From assembly GCA_015709595.1 (NCBI GenBank), contig CP054178.1, positions 1,553,205-1,617,204 of the forward strand: a stretch of DNA of 64,000 nucleotides, written 5' to 3'. Source of the DNA: Phycisphaeraceae bacterium (lineage in GTDB: Bacteria; Planctomycetota; Phycisphaerae; Phycisphaerales; SM1A02). A model generated the notes under the pieces. The model was not told the DNA's origin. It saw only the letters and a list, made by a program, of their open reading frames with translations, and made no database searches. Below are positions 20,144-49,346 of this stretch, piece by piece. Every line of letters begins with the position of its first letter. Positions within the stretch are counted from its first letter, which is position 1. The translations under genes were made by a program, and so were the position numbers.

Positions 20144-20775
20144 GCGACGCCTCGCCCATCCTGGTCTTCGGCGGCACGTTCGACCCCCCCCACAGGGCGC
20201 ACGTGGAGCTGCCGCGGCTGGTCGCGCGGCAGTTGGGTTGCCGCCGCATCATCTACGTTCCGGCGGCGATCAATCCGCTCAAGCAGGGTGGTCCGTCGCC
20301 CACGTCCGCGGCGCACCGGCTGGCGATGCTGCGGCTGGCGCTGCGCGACGTGCCGGAGGCGGAGATATCGACCGTTGAAATCGACCGTCCCCCGCCCTCG
20401 TACACCGTGGACACGCTGCGGGAACTGCGGCGTCAGGTCGGTCCCGACGCGAAACTGCTCCTGCTCATCGGGGCGGACGCGGCGGCGTCGTTCCACCGCT
20501 GGCGCGACCCGGCGGGCATCGAGTCGCTCGCCGAGCCGGTGGTGATGCTCCGTCCGCCGTGGACGCGGGAATCGTTCATCGAGCACATTCGGCGCGAGCA
20601 GGGCGAGGCGGCGGCGATGAAGTGGGCGACTCGGATCATTGAGACGCCGCAACTGGACGTGAGCGCAACGAATCTGCGCGCCGGCGCGGCGCATGGGACG
20701 ATTGCGGCGGATGAGGTGGACCCGCGCGTCCTGACGTACATCCGGGAGCATGGGTTGTATTGCAGCAAGCCATGA
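20140..20775 (+). CDS. nadD: Nicotinate-nucleotide adenylyltransferase
   Basis: ILVFGGTFDPPHRAHVEL (HxGH-type motif), PSYTVDTLREL, and SATNLR near the C-terminus. The ATG overlaps the upstream stop (ATGA at 20140-20143). Confidence 0.85.
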   Translation: MSDASPILVFGGTFDPPHRAHVELPRLVARQLGCRRIIYVPAAINPLKQGGPSPTSAAHRLAMLRLALRDVPEAEISTVEIDRPPPSYTVDTLRELRRQVGPDAKLLLLIGADAAASFHRWRDPAGIESLAEPVVMLRPPWTRESFIEHIRREQGEAAAMKWATRIIETPQLDVSATNLRAGAAHGTIAADEVDPRVLTYIREHGLYCSKP

Positions 20776-20843
20776 CGCTGGTGCACCTCTCTCGGTCATC
20801 GTCGGCTCGTTTCCCCAGCCCGCCCGTCTACCATTGTCGTTCA

Positions 20844-22739
20844 ATGCCCGCTTCCGCCGCGACAACCCGCGATTCCTCGACGAAACGGCCTGACGACGCC
20901 GGGGGCGTGTCGCGCGTGGCCTTCGTCTCGCTGGGGTGCCCCAAGAACCTCGTCGATAGCGAGAAGATGCTGGGCACGCTCGCCGAGGCGGGCCTGACGC
21001 TGGTGAGCGAGCAGGACAGCCCCGACGCCATCGTCATCAACACGTGCGGCTTCCTCGAAGCGTCCAAGGAGGAGTCGCTGGGCGTCATCCGCGACGCCAT
21101 CGCACGCAAGGAGCGGGGCGAACTCAAGCGCGTCGTTGTGGCCGGCTGCCTCGTGCAGCGCCACCGCGCCAGGATGCTCGACTGGGCGCCGGGCATCGAC
21201 GCCATGATCGGCGTCTTCGACAGGGATCACGTGGTGGAGGCGGTGGCGGGAGCGGCTGTCGGCCGTCAGCCGTCAGCCGTCAGCCAGGTGGTGGGCCTCG
21301 AAGACTCGGCCCATCCTACCGCCTCAGCGGTCAGCACCGACAACCGACAGCCGACAACCGACAACCACTCAGCACTCAGCACTCAGCACCCAGCACTCCC
21401 ACCCTACTGGATCGCCGCCAACGCGCTGGTCGCGGCGAAGGAGCGCGGCATCAACACGGTCGGGCTGACCGTCAACGGCGCGGACGGCAAGGGCGTGGGG
21501 TACTTCGAGGATGACTCACGACGATTCCGGCTCACGCCGCGCCACTGGGCGTACCTGCGCGTGAGCGAAGGATGCAACCAGCGCTGCGCCTTCTGCACGA
21601 TTCCATCGATCCGCGGCAAGATGCGCAGCAAGCCGATGGACCGCATCATCGCCGAGGCCCGCGCGCTCATGCAGGACGGCGCGTTCGAGATCAACCTGAT
21701 CGGGCAGGACACGACGAGCTACGGGTACGACATCTACGGGAAGGACGCGGGGCCGCCGGCCGTCAGTCCGCAGTCCTCTCCTCTCGCCCACTCCGGCGAC
21801 CTCATCGGCCTGCTGACCGCGCTCAACGACGTGGCGAGCGACTTCGGCGGAGCTTCCGGGGGGTGGATGCGGCTGATGTACGTCTACCCCACGTACTTCA
21901 CCGACGCCATGATCGACGCCATCGCCCGGCTGCCCAACATCGTCAAGTACATCGACATCCCGCTGCAGCACATGTCCGACCCGATGCTGCGCGCCATGCG
22001 CCGCAACATCACCGCGCGGCAGCAGATCGACCTGCTAAACAAACTGCGCGAGCGCATTCCGGGGCTGGCCATCCGCACCACGTTCATCACCGGCTTCCCC
22101 GGCGAGACGGAGGAGGACCATCGCCAGCTCGTCGATTTCATCGGCGAGTTCCAGTTCGACATGCTCGGCGTCTTCAGGTACTCGCGCGAGGACGGCACGC
22201 CCGCCGGCACGATGGACCTCGACCCCGCCCTGCACGTGCCCGACGAGGTGAAGGCCGAGCGAGAGCGCGAAATCATGCTCACGCAGCAGACCATCGCCTT
22301 CGAGAACATGGCGTATCTGGCGGAAGAGCGATGCCAGTTCGACGTGCTGATTGACGGACCGGCGCTGGGCGAGGCGTCGTCCGAGCCGATCGAACCGCGT
22401 CGCTCTCACACCGAGCCGCGATCCCGCCACAGTGAGCCGCGACCGTCAGGAAGCGGTGACTCCTTCGCACCATCGAACCAACCGCTCCCTCACGGTCGCG
22501 GCTCGCTGGAAGGTGCCGAGCACTCGACACGCGAGTCGGGCCAGCTGCACCACCACGTCGGCCGGGCGTACTTCCAGGCGCCGCAGATCGATTCGGTGAC
22601 GCACGTTCAGAGCATTCGTCCGCTTTCACCCGGCGAACTCGTCCGATGCACCATCGTCGATTCGCGGGGCTACGACCTCGTCGCCCGCCCGACGGAAGAC
22701 CTGGAGCGGCGCACCTCGCTGCCCCTGCTGAGGCGTTGA
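20844..22739 (+). CDS. rimO: Ribosomal protein S12 methylthiotransferase RimO, carrying two repeat-derived insertions
   Basis: VAFVSLGCPKNLVDSEKM...INTCGF (MTTase N-domain), radical-SAM CNQRCAFCTIP, and a TRAM-like end GRAYFQAPQIDSV...GELVRCTIV...YDL. Confidence 0.9.
   Translation: MPASAATTRDSSTKRPDDAGGVSRVAFVSLGCPKNLVDSEKMLGTLAEAGLTLVSEQDSPDAIVINTCGFLEASKEESLGVIRDAIARKERGELKRVVVAGCLVQRHRARMLDWAPGIDAMIGVFDRDHVVEAVAGAAVGRQPSAVSQVVGLEDSAHPTASAVSTDNRQPTTDNHSALSTQHPALPPYWIAANALVAAKERGINTVGLTVNGADGKGVGYFEDDSRRFRLTPRHWAYLRVSEGCNQRCAFCTIPSIRGKMRSKPMDRIIAEARALMQDGAFEINLIGQDTTSYGYDIYGKDAGPPAVSPQSSPLAHSGDLIGLLTALNDVASDFGGASGGWMRLMYVYPTYFTDAMIDAIARLPNIVKYIDIPLQHMSDPMLRAMRRNITARQQIDLLNKLRERIPGLAIRTTFITGFPGETEEDHRQLVDFIGEFQFDMLGVFRYSREDGTPAGTMDLDPALHVPDEVKAEREREIMLTQQTIAFENMAYLAEERCQFDVLIDGPALGEASSEPIEPRRSHTEPRSRHSEPRPSGSGDSFAPSNQPLPHGRGSLEGAEHSTRESGQLHHHVGRAYFQAPQIDSVTHVQSIRPLSPGELVRCTIVDSRGYDLVARPTEDLERRTSLPLLRR
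21263..21393. repeat. Three heptanucleotide tandem arrays inside rimO: (CCGTCAG)x3, (CCGACAR)x4, (CACYCAG)x4
   Basis: Read directly: 21263-21283, 21337-21364 and 21366-21393. They translate as SAVSRQPSAVSQ ... TDNRQPTTDNH ... SALSTQHPAL. Confidence 0.85.
22434..22504. repeat. Inverted pair of REP-A elements inside rimO (24-nt arms, 22/24 complementary, 23-nt spacer)
   Basis: GAGCCGCGACCGTCAGGAAGCGGT (22434-22457) faces ACCGCTCCCTCACGGTCGCGGCTC (22481-22504). The same 23-mer recurs elsewhere in the window. Confidence 0.85.
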
Positions 22740-30480: not shown

Positions 30481-32352
30481 TCACGAACCCCCCGCCACCG
30501 CCTTCCCCTCGCTCTCCGCCAGATCCTCCGTCTCGCCGCTGGCGTCGCCGCCGGGGGCGGTGGGGATGACCGGGGCCACCTTGGCGGCCTCGCGGTGGAG
30601 GGATTCCACGGACGGCGCGACCTCGATGCCCGTCGCGCTCGCTCCCGTTCGCTCTCCACCACGACTGGCACCCACCCCCGCTCCCTCACGGTCGCGGCTC
30701 GCTTTCAGGCCTGGGCTCGCTTCCCGCTCGTGGCTCGCTTCGCCATCGAGTATCGACGCAGGCACACTCCCACCCGCCGGCCCAACCGCTCCCTCACGGT
30801 CGCGGCTCACTTCTTGGTCGCGGCTCGCTTCCGGACCTGGGCTCGCGTGCGCTTGCACGAACTCCGCTCCCTCACGGTCGCGGCTCGCTTTCAGGCCTGG
30901 GCTCGCTTCCCGCTCGGGGCTCGCTTCGCCAGCTCCCTTCCGCTCCACCAGATTGATCCGCCGCCACGGTCCGCGCTCGAAGCGCCAGGCCATGGTCAGC
31001 CCGAACAGAATGATGTACACGCTCGCGCCGATCCACGGGCCCACGCTGGTCCACTGGGGCACGTACTCCACCAGCAGCCAGCCGCCCAGCACGATGAAGA
31101 CCCACGAGTAGATCATGGTCATCACGCCGGGCCACACGGTGTCGCCCGCGCCGCGCAGGGCGCCGGAGTACACCACGCCCAGGGCGTCGGCGGTCTGGAA
31201 GATCGCGGCGCAGATCATCAGCCGCGCGCCGATGGCGATGATCTCCTGGCGCATCTCGGGCGTCACGTTCTGACCACTGGCGAACACCGCCACCAGCGGT
31301 TCGCGGAAGAAGTACATCGCCACCGCGCAGATCGTCATGTAGATCATCGACACCGACAGCCCAAGCCGGGCCCGATGGGCGGCGGTGTCCGGCTGGCCCG
31401 CCCCGATGTAGCGGCCGACCAGCGAACTCACGGCCACGGAGAACCCCACTGCGGGCATGAACGACAGGTGCATGTAGCCCAGCACCGCCCAGCCGGCGGT
31501 CATGTGGTTTTCGCCGAAGCGGCCCACGAGCACGCTCATGAAGATGAGCCAGCAGATGATCTCGTTGCCGAACTGCACCGCCGCGGGCCAGCCGATGCGC
31601 AGCAGGTCGCGCATGGGCGCCCAGCGGGGCCTCCAGGCGGTGCGGCTCCTGAGGGTCTTGTTCAGCCCCGGGCCGAGGAAGATGGCGCAGGGAATCAGCA
31701 GTTCGCAGGTGGTGCCGATGATGGTGCCGATCGCGGCGCCGTACACGCCCATCGCGGGAATGCCCAAGGGCTCCACGCCGAAGATGAACACGAAGTTCGC
31801 ACCCACGTTGACCAGGTTGCCGACGATGGCGGCGACGGTGATCACCTTGGGCCGATGCAGCCCGAAGAAGAAGTGGTGCATGGCGCGGCCCACCAGCAGC
31901 AGCACGCCGCCAACCAGCAGAATCTGCGCGTAGCCGGTCTCCAGGCGCACCAACTCATCGGAGTGACCCATCCAACTGAACACCAGCGGCGAGAGAGCCG
32001 CCATCGGCAGCAGGATCAGCGCCCACATGGCGATGCTCAGCCACACGCCCGCCCAGGCGTACTGGGGGCCTTTCTCCGGCTGCCCCGCGCCCAGGTTCTG
32101 CGACACGTAGGTGTTGATGACCGTGAGCACGCCCAGCCCGAAGGCCATGGGGGTGAAGGTCCAGATGCCGCCGTTGCCCTGCGCGGCGACCTCCAGCGCG
32201 CCCACCTGGGCCACCATGAGCTTGTCGATGAACTGCATGACCGTGTAGCTGGTCATGGTCAGCACCGTGGGCCACGCGATCGCCCACACCTCGCCCAGGG
32301 GCGAACGTGGCGGCGTGAAACCATCCTGCGATGTCGGTGCTGGCGCAGTCAT
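30481..32352 (-). CDS. MATE family efflux transporter with repeat-derived C-terminal extension
   Basis: WPTVLTMTSYTVMQFIDKLMVAQVG..., 12 hydrophobic segments and YSGALRGAGDT. Start set at MTAPAP (32352), because the track N-terminal extension overlaps der. The last 150 aa or so are encoded by REP-A copies. Confidence 0.85.
   Translation of the reverse strand: MTAPAPTSQDGFTPPRSPLGEVWAIAWPTVLTMTSYTVMQFIDKLMVAQVGALEVAAQGNGGIWTFTPMAFGLGVLTVINTYVSQNLGAGQPEKGPQYAWAGVWLSIAMWALILLPMAALSPLVFSWMGHSDELVRLETGYAQILLVGGVLLLVGRAMHHFFFGLHRPKVITVAAIVGNLVNVGANFVFIFGVEPLGIPAMGVYGAAIGTIIGTTCELLIPCAIFLGPGLNKTLRSRTAWRPRWAPMRDLLRIGWPAAVQFGNEIICWLIFMSVLVGRFGENHMTAGWAVLGYMHLSFMPAVGFSVAVSSLVGRYIGAGQPDTAAHRARLGLSVSMIYMTICAVAMYFFREPLVAVFASGQNVTPEMRQEIIAIGARLMICAAIFQTADALGVVYSGALRGAGDTVWPGVMTMIYSWVFIVLGGWLLVEYVPQWTSVGPWIGASVYIILFGLTMAWRFERGPWRRINLVERKGAGEASPEREASPGLKASRDREGAEFVQAHASPGPEASRDQEVSRDREGAVGPAGGSVPASILDGEASHEREASPGLKASRDREGAGVGASRGGERTGASATGIEVAPSVESLHREAAKVAPVIPTAPGGDASGETEDLAESEGKAVAGGS
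30678..30931. repeat. Cluster of three REP-A copies (30678, 30786, 30864); first and third are extended 68-nt near-identical units 186 bp apart
   Basis: CCGCTCCCTCACGGTCGCGGCTC was read three times. Copies 1 and 3 continue identically through GCTTTCAGGCCTGGGCTCGCTTCCCGCTCG. Confidence 0.9.
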
Positions 32353-34219: not shown

Positions 34220-35581
34220 ATGTCCGTTCCCACCGACCTCGACTACGCGCTGGATGATCACGGGACGGAGCGCCCCATCGCCGAGATCGCGCGGTCGTTC
34301 ACGCTCGATCCGCGTATTCCTGCGCTCGTGCCGGGGTTCGATGCGCCGTTCTTCCAGGCGGGGCTGGCGGGATATTCCGACGGGGCGATGCGCCTGATCG
34401 CCCGGCGGCATGGCTGCCCCTTCTGCGTCACCGAGGCGCTGCTCGATCAGACGCTCATCAACGGCGGCAAGGGGCGCACGCGCGAGGATCCCGACCTGCT
34501 GGCCGAGGAGTGCGGCACCGGCGATCCGGACGAGAACATTCCCGGCTCGGCGCGCGGGCTGGTGGATCATCCCATCGCCGGGCAGATCATGGGCACGTTT
34601 CCCGATCAGATGGCCCGCGGGTCGCTGCTGCTGGTGGGCATGGGGCACGACGTGATTGATGTGAACCTGGCCTGCCCGGTGAAGAAGATTCGCCGCCGGT
34701 CACGAGGTGGGCACTTCCTCATGGACCCGGTCGGCGCGATAGAAGTTCTGCGAGCCGTGCGCCAGGCGGTTCCGTCGCATGTGCCCTGCACCGTGAAACT
34801 CCGCCGCGCGTGGGACGACACGCCGGAGATGGCGCGCCACTTCGAGCGCATCTTCGAGGCGGCGTACGAGCTGGGCTATGCGTGGGCGACCGTGCATTGC
34901 CGCACTGTGGTGCAGAAGTATCATGGGCCGGGTCGCTGGTCATTTCTGCGCGACCTGACGCGACGCTACCCCGATCGGCTGATCTTCGGCTCGGGCGACG
35001 TGTGGCGCGTGGAGGACATCTTCGCCATGCTGGACCTGACGGGTGTGCATGCCGTGAGCGTGGCCCGCGGGTGCATCGGCAATCCGTGGATCTTCCGCCA
35101 GGCGCGGGAGTTGATGTCCGGAATGAGGATGGCAGGCGGGACGCCCGCCCCACTGACGCCCACCCCGCCGATGTCCGCCACACCGACGCGCGAAGTGAGC
35201 CGCGACCGTCAGGGGGCGTATGACCCACACGAAGTGAGCCGCGACCGTCAGGGAGCGGATGACCCACACGAAATGAACCGTGACCATGAGGGGGCGTATG
35301 ACCCACACGAAGTGAGCCGCGACCGTCAGGGAGCGGATGACCCGTTCACTCCGACGCCGCCCACCATAGACGAGCAGCGCCAGGCCCTGCTGGAGCACTT
35401 TGACCTCGCCGTCGCCTTGCACGGCGAGCGATCCGCCTCGCAGCAGATGCGGAAGTTCGGCATCAAGTTCAGCCGCCATCACCCGCGGGGCGAACAGGTG
35501 AAGGCGGAGTTCATCCGCTGCAAGACCGTCGCCGACTGGCGCGCCGTGGTGGAGCGGTGGTACGCAAATCTTTCGGAGTGA
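34220..35581 (+). CDS. tRNA-dihydrouridine synthase (Dus family) with a 39-bp tandem repeat insertion
   Basis: LAGYSDGAMRLIARRHG, AGQIMG, IDVNLACPVKKI and TVKLR are Dus TIM-barrel motifs. The insertion lies between the barrel and the helical domain. Confidence 0.85.
   Translation: MSVPTDLDYALDDHGTERPIAEIARSFTLDPRIPALVPGFDAPFFQAGLAGYSDGAMRLIARRHGCPFCVTEALLDQTLINGGKGRTREDPDLLAEECGTGDPDENIPGSARGLVDHPIAGQIMGTFPDQMARGSLLLVGMGHDVIDVNLACPVKKIRRRSRGGHFLMDPVGAIEVLRAVRQAVPSHVPCTVKLRRAWDDTPEMARHFERIFEAAYELGYAWATVHCRTVVQKYHGPGRWSFLRDLTRRYPDRLIFGSGDVWRVEDIFAMLDLTGVHAVSVARGCIGNPWIFRQARELMSGMRMAGGTPAPLTPTPPMSATPTREVSRDRQGAYDPHEVSRDRQGADDPHEMNRDHEGAYDPHEVSRDRQGADDPFTPTPPTIDEQRQALLEHFDLAVALHGERSASQQMRKFGIKFSRHHPRGEQVKAEFIRCKTVADWRAVVERWYANLSE
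35192..35345. repeat. 39-bp tandem repeat x4 built on REP-A in reverse orientation (GAAGTGAGCCGCGACCGTCAGGGRGCGKATGACCCACAC)
   Basis: Units start at 35192, 35231, 35270 and 35309. They translate as EVSRDRQGAYDPH / EVSRDRQGADDPH / EMNRDHEGAYDPH / EVSRDRQGADDP. Confidence 0.9.
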
Positions 35582-48171: not shown

Positions 48172-48253
48172 ACCACTCCCTGACGGTCGTGGCTCGAAGA
48201 CTCGGCTTCTTGCTGATGGCCTCTTGCTGACGGCTGATAGCTGACGGCTGATG
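48172..48253. repeat. REP-A copy (48172-48194) followed by heptamer array (GCTGAYR)x4 at 48226-48253
   Basis: CCACTCCCTGACGGTCGTGGCTC, then GCTGACG GCTGATA GCTGACG GCTGATG. The heptamer is the reverse complement of the CGTCAGC array inside rimO. Confidence 0.8.
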
Positions 48254-48299
48254 GCGGCTCTCCCCGCCATCTTGTGAAGCCGCCGCGCGCCTCCTACTG

Positions 48300-49127
48300 T
48301 TGCGCGGTTCCCGGGAGTTTTCAGCCGTGATCGACACCGCCAGCGAGCCGCTCATCGAACTCGGCGTCAACATTGACCACGTCGCCACCGTGCGACAGGC
48401 GCGTCGGACGTACGAGCCCGACCCCGTGTGGGCGGCGGTGGAAGCCCATCTGGGCGGGGCGGACGGCATCACCGTCCACCTGCGCGAGGATCGGCGTCAC
48501 ATCCACGATGACGACGTGCGGCGGCTGGCGGAACTCGTCCACATCAAGCTCAACCTGGAGATGGCCGCGACGCAGGAGATGGTGGACTTCGCCTGCGCCA
48601 TCAAGCCGCAGCTCGCCATGCTGGTGCCAGAGAGCCGGCAGGAAGTGACCACCGAAGGCGGGCTGGACGTGGCGGGCCAGCAGCCGCGGATGAAGGACGT
48701 GGTCGCCCGGCTCGAGCAGCACGGCATCATCGTGAGCGCGTTCATCGACGCCGACGCCCGGCAGGTGGAGGCGGCGCGGGCGTGCGGCTTCCGCGTGTGC
48801 GAGATCCACACCGGCCCCTACGCCAACACCTTCTGGCGACAGGGACGCGACCCCGAAAGCCCCGCCGTCCAGGCCGAGCTGCGCAAGGTGCGCGAGGCGG
48901 GGGAACTCATCCGACAGGCGGGTCTGCGATTCAACGCCGGGCACGGGCTGAACTACTACAACGTCCAGCCGATCGCGGCGCTTCCGGGAGTGCGCGAACT
49001 GCATATCGGCCACTCCATCGTCAGCCGCGCGGTCATCGTGGGCATGCGGCAGGCGGTGGCGGAGATGAAACGGCTGATGCGAGAGGCGGCGACGGCGTCG
49101 CTGCGGGCGCGGCTTCTGACCGGATGA
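48300..49127 (+). CDS. pdxJ: Pyridoxine 5-phosphate synthase
   Basis: [39 protein letters not shown]-like CEIHTGPYA and NAGHGLNY. The start is TTG 48300 or GTG 48327. Confidence 0.9.
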
Positions 49128-49280
49128 CGGAGGACAGGTCCACGGATGAACACGGATGAACAGGGATGGTCAAAGACGAAGAGAATCGGCGGCTTCGACG
49201 GCGTACTTTCGTCCGTTGGTTCAAATGACGGAACGCATGTGCCGCCAGATCGACCTGCGATTGCGAGTCGCATGGGATCG

Positions 49281-49346
49281 ACCGCTCCCTCACGGTCGCG
49301 GCTCATTTCGGCTGGACATCCAAACGCTCCCTGACGGTCGCGGCAC
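49281..49346. repeat. Two REP-A copies in direct orientation (49281-49304, 49324-49346)
   Basis: ACCGCTCCCTCACGGTCGCGGCTC and ACGCTCCCTGACGGTCGCGGCAC, in the pdxJ-dapA intergenic region. Confidence 0.85.

Follow-up and report, generated by a model that had tools for sequence, protein, structure and literature searches.

A hairpin-forming doublet of REP-type units lies in frame within the TRAM loop of RimO in a Phycisphaeraceae bacterium and was probably moved there by a transposase embedded in valS

In a stretch of 64,000 nucleotides (nt) from a Phycisphaeraceae bacterium (GenBank assembly GCA_015709595.1, contig CP054178.1, forward-strand positions 1,553,205 to 1,617,204; hereafter the window), the gene rimO, which encodes ribosomal protein S12 methylthiotransferase, contains an inverted pair of repeats within its coding sequence. 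The question raised by this locus is how a palindromic repeat came to stand in the reading frame of a conserved enzyme, and how it persists there. The answer that we favor, at a probability of about 0.78, is that the segment is a doublet of repetitive extragenic palindromic (REP) units of the kind that goes with class 3 TnpA_Y1 transposases, inserted into the codons of a TRAM loop in an ancestor of this lineage and moved in trans by a transposase that is itself embedded in valS. The features of rimO on which this reading is built are the following:

20844-22739, + strand: rimO (ribosomal protein S12 methylthiotransferase), 631 residues from the ATG of the public gene calls (P0001); the open frame begins at 20760
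22383-22433, + strand: leader of head units, with a degenerate head GAGCCG at 22383 and the 21-nt unit GAGCCGCGATCCCGCCACAGT at 22413-22433; read as SEPIEPRRSHTEPRSRH
22430-22457, + strand: left REP unit, C variant (GTCAGG), with the 5' foot CAGT; read as (S)EPRPSGSG
22458-22480, + strand: spacer of 23 nt, unique, the loop of the long hairpin; read as DSFAPSNQ
22481-22508, - strand: right REP unit, G variant, inverted, with 0 mismatches to the genome consensus; read on the + strand as PLPHGRGSL

The open reading frame (ORF) 20760-22739 scores 404.8 bits against TIGR01125 (cut-off 356.95) and carries the Pfam domains UPF0004 (PF00919), Radical_SAM (PF04055) and TRAM_2 (PF18693); as judged from its sequence, by the equivalog score and by the architecture of methylthiotransferase N-domain, radical-SAM domain and TRAM domain, its product is RimO. 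The entire repeat segment is in frame within this ORF and inside the TRAM domain, as an initial annotation of the window had proposed, and it lies between strands 1 and 2 of that domain. The same annotation described an inverted pair complementary at 22 of 24 positions around a 23-nt spacer, and this description holds: the arms 22434-22457 (+) and 22481-22504 (-) agree at all but 2 of 24 positions and enclose 23 nt, and the inverted repeat extends further, to arms of 28 nt (22430-22457 and 22481-22508) with 89% complementarity. The predicted RNA fold of 22405-22515 is a single long hairpin with an energy of -59.2 kcal/mol, where 200 shuffles average -35.8 (z -6.4) and not one of them was as good, in agreement with the hairpin that had been suggested, and the half-copy reported at 22411-22428 corresponds to the 21-nt unit at 22413-22433, which begins with GAGCCGCGA, the same nine bases as the full unit. 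In the left arm of the doublet, the C at position 14 gives TCA where the G variant would read TGA. An intrinsic terminator was considered for this hairpin and rejected, as there is no T-run 3' of it and a terminator scan at the site was negative.

We then compared the protein with 13 RimO orthologues from the same family and order (58-73% identity, with the catalytic Cys motifs and the invariant residues all kept), and the insert is absent from every one of them. The initial annotation had assumed about 60 added residues between VLIDG and a following motif normally close to it; the distance from VLID to GRxY is already about 25 residues in the orthologues, against 68 in the RimO of the window, and the insert comes to about 43-45 residues. 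One relative has an unrelated extension of 19 residues at the same TRAM site, and the loop is therefore permissive. A word search with the insert peptides over 5.8 billion proteins returned two clusters only, both of them RimO of this lineage, which bears out the suspicion that the insertion is lineage-specific. The identical insert peptide occurs in five RimO variants, on at least 30 contigs of independent NCBI, ENA and Logan assemblies, and the public copies of this lineage's rimO all retain the insert unchanged; in the assemblies from two other runs the 100-nt repeat segment is 100% identical, while the flanks (about 170 nt) differ at 6 sites.

At the protein level, the Pfam TRAM match starts only at profile position 17, downstream of the insert, and in an AlphaFold model of low overall confidence residues 538-593 have a pLDDT (predicted local distance difference test) of about 32 and no secondary structure, lying between strands 526-534 and 597-603. 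The insert peptide is hydrophilic and probably disordered, in a loop that already varies among orthologues, and RimO itself is intact and conserved, in keeping with the claim that the gene tolerates the insertion. In rimO a mobile palindrome has added a loop to a conserved enzyme, in a case that is clear and can be dated. Elsewhere in the protein, the linker from the N-domain to the radical-SAM domain (21263-21393) holds heptanucleotide arrays that are absent from the orthologues, and the RimO of a sister lineage (P0002) has another repeat-like peptide in its N-terminal linker (CPPSPLGRGTEGEGG...SPSPLTPLPGEEG); this linker turns over quickly, and the TRAM insert is unchanged.

The arms of the rimO doublet belong to a large repeat family. 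The unit has the consensus GAGCCGCGACCGT[G/C]AGGGAGCGG, which in context reads AG[C/T]-GAGCCGCGACCGT[G/C]AGGGAGCGG-T and is also written with its 5' context as AG[C/T]GAGCCGCGACCGT[G/C]AGGGAGCGGT. The genome, a single contig of 3.84 Mb with 67% GC, holds 126 copies at up to 4 mismatches; the window contains 10 of them when 3 mismatches are allowed (expected number, 0) and an eleventh with 4 mismatches. The earlier count of at least nine further occurrences of a 23-mer in the window, in both orientations and both intergenic and genic, is thus borne out, copies in the dihydrouridine synthase gene (dus) being genic, and the motif is repeated far beyond the window. Nearly all positions of the unit are conserved above 93%, the exception being position 14, with G in 89 copies and C in 36. 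A division into two subfamilies was rejected, as the base before the unit (C or T) is unlinked to the G or C at position 14 (p 0.40). A single unit has a predicted stem of CCGC/GCGG plus CC/GG around a GT[G/C]A loop.

Some copies stand alone, others form tandem arrays whose period (39-84 nt) depends on the locus, and others make up 14 inverted doublets, all of which are oriented (+,-) with spacers of 6-27 nt, the same arrangement as that of the units around the transposase described below. Truncated head units of 20-21 nt (GAGCCGCGAC plus about 10 nt) are often stacked immediately upstream of full units across the genome: the distance from one head to the next has a sharp peak at 21 nt (42 cases), and 25 orphan heads stand immediately upstream of a full copy. 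Three loci, at C1:75183-75460, 751857-752220 and 2892741-2893400, are occupied by long tandem arrays of about 84-nt period, and in each the repeated block consists of a REP unit, 21-nt heads and a second GC-rich palindrome, with the REP units in one orientation and at 0 mismatches. A replication-strand bias of the copies was looked for and rejected as inconsistent, with 31 + and 34 - copies on one replichore and 19 + and 42 - on the other, the second inflated by tandem arrays.

The unit is not confined to this genome. An exact 22-mer of it occurs in at least 120 stretches, and among the matches listed 55 are from Planctomycetota, 52 from Acidobacteriota, 4 from Pseudomonadota, 4 from Chloroflexota, 2 from Binatota and 1 each from Armatimonadota and Myxococcota, where chance would give far fewer than one match. 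This 22-mer is thus kept constant across seven phyla, presumably through its transposase and through horizontal transfer. Two Legionella loci (L079 and L086, among L051-L170) contain the exact 22-mer. A literature search for the letters of the motif gave only an unrelated primer-like match.

The transposase that we propose as the partner of these units is the only match to PF01797 (Y1_Tnp) in the genome, at 28.9 bits against a curated cut-off of 23. It is flanked by the same repeat: two + units lie to its left (C1:3836742 and 3836775) and two - units to its right (3837312 and 3837407), which is the classic REPtron layout. The protein contains the motifs SNHVHVVV, VWT (VWTRHGS) and EYVLHEQ, with L and H at the two variable positions of the class 3 pattern, and an alignment of 27 homologues shows no variation at H93, H95, Y153 and Q158. 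By the motifs NHVH, W[TA] and YV..EQ it matches class 3 TnpA_Y1, to which we assign it on sequence grounds. A search of PDB sequences with it gave nothing significant (the best Y1 transposase at E 0.85); its structural model, with a pLDDT of 84, has 4ER8 as its best PDB fold match (E 8e-6), followed by the TnpA of IS200, IS608 and ISDra2, and the top 30 Foldseek matches are all Y1 transposases. The foot before the stem of the unit is G[C/T]GA and shares nGA with the CnGA reported by Quentin et al. (2018, BMC Genomics 19:475, PMC6006769), and the foot tags of canonical RAYT systems, GTAG/CGTC, are absent from this repeat.

Repeat and transposase also occur together in other genomes. In a set of 31 relatives the match is perfect: six genomes have a close homologue (48-100% identity) and hold 11-123 copies of the motif, and the other 25 hold 0-7. 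Across 401 Phycisphaerae genomes, a transposase match and at least 10 copies are associated (cells 40, 48, 24 and 289; odds ratio 10, p 7e-15). The link between repeat and transposase is strong, not absolute. Together with the cognate transposase flanked by the same units, this co-occurrence supports the initial view of a mobile element resembling REPs or miniature inverted-repeat transposable elements. Four genomes (G308, G213, G324 and G414) hold 36-185 motif copies, and a profile search finds no class 3 transposase in them; either the transposase is missing from these assemblies or the repeats outlive it.

The REP-transposase-REP cassette (C1:3836742-3837430; locus L001, 1248-1936) is in frame in a valS open frame of 1345 codons, with the class I catalytic, anticodon-binding and C-terminal arm domains of the synthetase on both sides of it, and at its boundaries the embedded transposase has neither a start nor a stop codon of its own. 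A search of the genome found no second valS. The cassette stands between DQWY and DWCISRQ, a distance of 55-66 residues in relatives without it (76-96 in a few) and of 259-294 residues in carriers. Of the Phycisphaerae genomes examined, 15 have a homologous transposase at this loop, and in a sixteenth it lies elsewhere in valS (L184). Homologous transposases are also found in alaS in four genomes (L185, L186, L187 and L198), two of which have two copies, and in a DUF1156 protein in three (L188, L192 and L201); those in alaS, in the DUF1156 protein and at the second valS site are bordered by peptides derived from REPs, for example SRDREG and LPHGRGS. Homologues sampled elsewhere in the phylum all stand alone. 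On the transposase tree the host genes cluster, with 8 changes against 16.3 in shuffles, at a resolution too low to tell a single ancient entry into valS from repeated entry.

A search of Rfam gave no family matching the window or the valS locus, and the boundaries in rimO and valS (...SKASRDREGA..., ...PLPHGRGSL...) do not show the intein pattern Cys/Ser/Thr...HN-Cys/Ser/Thr; an intein or a self-splicing intron was rejected for both genes on the absence of these motifs and of an Rfam match and by the keeping of the frame. The literature search returned no report of a transposase nested in an aminoacyl-tRNA synthetase gene. The valS of a further genome (G002; locus L226) has a low-complexity stretch of 96 residues (…SEPARSRAGTGTSTG…) at the site that is empty in most relatives, and this stretch may be the scar of a lost cassette.

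To place the rimO insert among the other copies we used a crude gene model derived from codon usage and a strict genic test that asks for coding signal on both flanks of a copy. By this test 25 of the 126 copies lie inside 15 genes; with the four valS copies and the third dus copy the figure is about 30 copies in about 16 genes, and the genic share is 20-24%. Random positions pass the strict test 46% of the time and are intergenic in 19% of cases, against 52% of the REP copies, and genes are therefore depleted about twofold, yet far from avoided. The host genes with Pfam domains on both sides of the insert encode MnmA, a CHAT/TPR protein, a GH2 glycosidase, CstA, a NagB/PIG-L protein, a DNA-alkylation repair protein, a P-type ATPase, homoserine dehydrogenase (Hom), Dus, a MiaB paralogue, CarB, a pyridoxal phosphate (PLP) enzyme, asparagine synthase (AsnB), class II ribonucleotide reductase (NrdJ) and valyl-tRNA synthetase (ValRS). 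RimO is dispensable in Escherichia coli, and because of this carB, nrdJ and valS are stronger cases than rimO for tolerance in vital genes. Besides rimO, the window contains these copies:

35197-35337, + strand: tandem in-frame REP units in the dus gene, read as SRDRQGA repeats, with Pfam Dus on the same ORF (L040)
30677-30886, - strand: three REP copies that the crude gene model puts in intergenic DNA, at a gene's 3' end or beyond it
48172-49346, - strand: three REP copies (48172, 49281 and 49323), between genes by the gene model

None of the 25-30 genic copies contains a stop or shifts the frame of its host. Whichever the variant, one and only one of the six frames of the unit contains TGA. 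In each of the seven genic doublets one arm is G and the other C, so that one strand is free of TGA, and this is the coding strand in 6 of the 7; over all doublets, the asymmetry of G and C arms is seen in 11 of 14 (p 0.005). When the copies in the same sense as their gene are considered (n=16), 13 read SRDREGA, three read EPRPSGSG (the C variant only) and none reads AATVRER. Decay of the genic copies was considered and rejected, as they are not more diverged than the others (0.87 vs 0.78 mismatches, p 0.49). In the MiaB-type paralogue of RimO (C1:1843126-1843200, locus L042) there is also an in-frame REP doublet, and the radical-SAM match is split in two.

Taking these results into consideration, we propose that the rimO segment is a doublet of REP-type units that goes with a class 3 HUH/Y1 transposase (TnpA_Y1, RAYT-like), and that it would have entered the codons for the loop between TRAM strands 1 and 2 in the ancestor of this species-level lineage. 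The units would be moved as single-stranded DNA by the single class 3 transposase of the genome, acting in trans; this is suggested by the known chemistry of the family, by the REP flanks of the transposase, by its conserved catalytic residues and by the co-occurrence of the two. Persistence may be explained by three properties of the insert: its length leaves the rimO frame unbroken, its orientation places the stop-free strand on the coding side, with TCA in the C-variant left arm, and its product, which would be translated as part of RimO, is a hydrophilic and probably disordered loop peptide at an already variable site. The transposase is presumably active and moves the units, and the insert would be translated and neutral for RimO.

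Several observations weigh against this reading. The spacers of the 14 doublets are all different and mutually unrelated, and the doublets therefore do not descend from a single master element as the REPINs of Pseudomonas do; a single unit folds only weakly, at -5.3 kcal/mol (z -0.9 to -1.5). Among the public copies of rimO the insert is fixed, and no polymorphism of filled versus empty sites was seen. Several of the counts given here are small. The genic copies would be translated as protein segments, which for the rimO insert we infer from the frame only, and the RimO model is poor overall (mean pLDDT 58.5, from 14 sequences), so that low confidence in the loop is a weak sign of disorder. 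As to the partner, the transposase scores below the cut-offs of the canonical models, with 33.9 of 80 bits for RAYT (REP_Tyr_transpos) and 25.3 of 55 bits for IS200, and is therefore to be taken as a member of the superfamily and of class 3, not of class 2. Finally, 4 of 10 REP-rich genomes searched again with a profile show no transposase, the other six giving a more distant homologue, and many transposase-positive genomes do not have the exact motif.

Part of this evidence could also be accommodated if the units spread and formed doublets by slippage, gene conversion or illegitimate recombination, the association with a transposase being historical. The tandem arrays with periods of 39-84 nt and the stuttered units of 20-21 nt do resemble slippage products, every doublet has its own spacer, and there are the four REP-rich genomes without a detectable transposase; but slippage cannot carry nearly identical 24-mers to about 70 scattered loci, and the exact 22-mer common to seven phyla, the strong co-occurrence with the transposase and its conserved catalytic residues are difficult to reconcile with such a process, which we consider unlikely. 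It is also conceivable that an Arg/Ser/Pro/Gly-rich TRAM loop aids the function of RimO, for example in contact with S12 or the ribosome, and that the insert was co-opted and is kept by selection on the protein. That the peptide is identical in five RimO variants while the N-terminal linker is replaced in one of them, that the 100-nt segment has 0 substitutions against 6 in about 170 nt of flank, and that 5 of the about 16 host genes (rimO, miaB, mnmA, dus and valS) act on tRNA or the ribosome would all fit; the contrast of 0/100 with 6/170 is, however, not significant, what is conserved is the DNA, synonymous positions included, as a young insert or a constraint on DNA would lead one to expect, the same DNA is found in five of the six reading frames and mostly between genes, and the 13 orthologues work without an insert that has no structure in the model. 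Co-option thus seems to us quite improbable.

A different possibility is that the mature RimO does not contain the insert at all, the segment being cut out of the mRNA or passed over by the ribosome at the hairpin, as in the bypassing of phage T4 gene 60. An mRNA hairpin of -59 kcal/mol is very stable, and according to a preprint (bioRxiv 10.1101/2023.11.20.567912) relatives of IS200/IS605, the IStrons, leave genes by RNA splicing; yet a stop-free and in-frame sequence in all 25-30 genic copies would be needless if they were removed, the window and the valS locus match nothing in Rfam, and the stop codon that bypassing requires after the take-off site is absent, so that this explanation is very hard to sustain. 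Repeats are, finally, typical sites of misassembly, and rimO might be a decaying pseudogene; but the same sequence is present in independent assemblies from other runs, and the ORF is unbroken, passes the equivalog cut-off for RimO and has every invariant residue. An identical insert in independent assemblies and an intact rimO therefore speak for neither artefact nor pseudogene, and we give these two almost no credence. The insertion of a class 3 doublet into the TRAM loop, moved in trans by the valS-embedded transposase, remains the reading that we prefer.

Beyond rimO, we put forward a wider proposal, tentatively and with more doubt than confidence: class 3 elements in Phycisphaerae may use coding sequence as a regular niche, the transposase being made only as an internal domain of an indispensable enzyme and still moving REPs that survive as stop-free loops in many housekeeping proteins. 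The enzyme would be ValRS here and, at the same loop, in 14 further genomes, AlaRS in four genomes and a DUF1156 protein in three. Imprecise loss of the element would be lethal, and it would so persist, in the manner of an intein without splicing. Were the valS-embedded transposase active, a transposase would here have a new means of securing both its inheritance and its expression, and there would be a tractable system for the idea that REPs and RAYTs are long-term residents rather than parasites. The view across the genome tells more than rimO alone: it is a natural experiment that shows which loops of proteins can take up 8-45 additional residues, and one where the reading frame shapes the DNA element through the stop-free variant and orientation used. 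In practical terms, the repeats lengthen proteins and split domain matches, and tools for annotation or orthology can be misled by them in Planctomycetota and Acidobacteriota.

When known systems are compared, the Rickettsia palindromic elements (RPEs), reportedly described by Ogata et al. in 2000 (cited in PMC3733652), are among the closest. RPEs are palindromic mobile elements that lie in frame in housekeeping genes and are translated as a surface segment of some tens of residues; they are longer (about 100-150 bp), and to our knowledge they have no transposase and no sequence relationship to the repeat described here. The likeness lies in the insertion of a palindrome in frame as an extra segment of the protein surface, and is one of way of life only, whereas here a cognate HUH/Y1 transposase is identified.

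With the REPINs and RAYTs of Pseudomonas and Enterobacteria and with the bacterial interspersed mosaic elements (BIMEs) of E. coli, the repeat shares two inverted REPs that form a long hairpin and a single-copy transposase flanked by REPs (Bertels and Rainey 2011, PMC3116915). The TnpA-REP of E. coli has the same fold, 4ER8 being the best match, and the G and C arm variants differ slightly, much like the Y and Z REPs of BIMEs. In contrast to the REPINs of Pseudomonas, the doublet spacers here all differ and the doublet as a whole is not the unit of copying; the transposase falls below the canonical RAYT cut-off; and, while REPINs are extragenic almost by definition, the present units are common inside genes. 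Intragenic copies are known for the GTAG/CGTC REPs, which occur as single units and inverted dimers wholly within ORFs and add short peptides to tRNA synthetases, a tRNA pseudouridine synthase and the products of repair genes (Di Nocera, De Gregorio and Rocco 2013, BMC Genomics 14:522, PMC3733652). Those form another repeat family, the GTAG/CGTC tag being absent here, and the genic share in the present genome is much higher, at 20-24% or about 16 genes in 3.8 Mb.

Also close are the class 3 TnpA_Y1 systems. According to Quentin et al. (PMC6006769), these are rare, occur in Planctomycetes, Acidobacteria and Proteobacteria, have atypical secondary structures on their flanks, have proteins of about 178 residues with the motifs NHVH, W[TA] and YV[VI][AENY]EQ, and reach about 600 unit copies in Solibacter usitatus. 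The element studied here has the same catalytic motifs, a similar size (about 170-178 residues), the same phyla (Planctomycetota, Acidobacteriota and Pseudomonadota), several flanking units and a high copy number; it differs in its 5' foot, which is G[C/T]GA here and CnGA in that paper, and in its in-frame valS transposase and in-frame genic units, neither of which is described there (PMC6006769). The same authors state that unusually long proteins were set aside as gene fusions or annotation errors, which would be the reason why a transposase nested in valS was not described. In summary, the rimO insert is an intragenic REP, with clear precedents in the intragenic REPs and in the RPEs, and the density of genic copies and the nested transposase go beyond what we found described.

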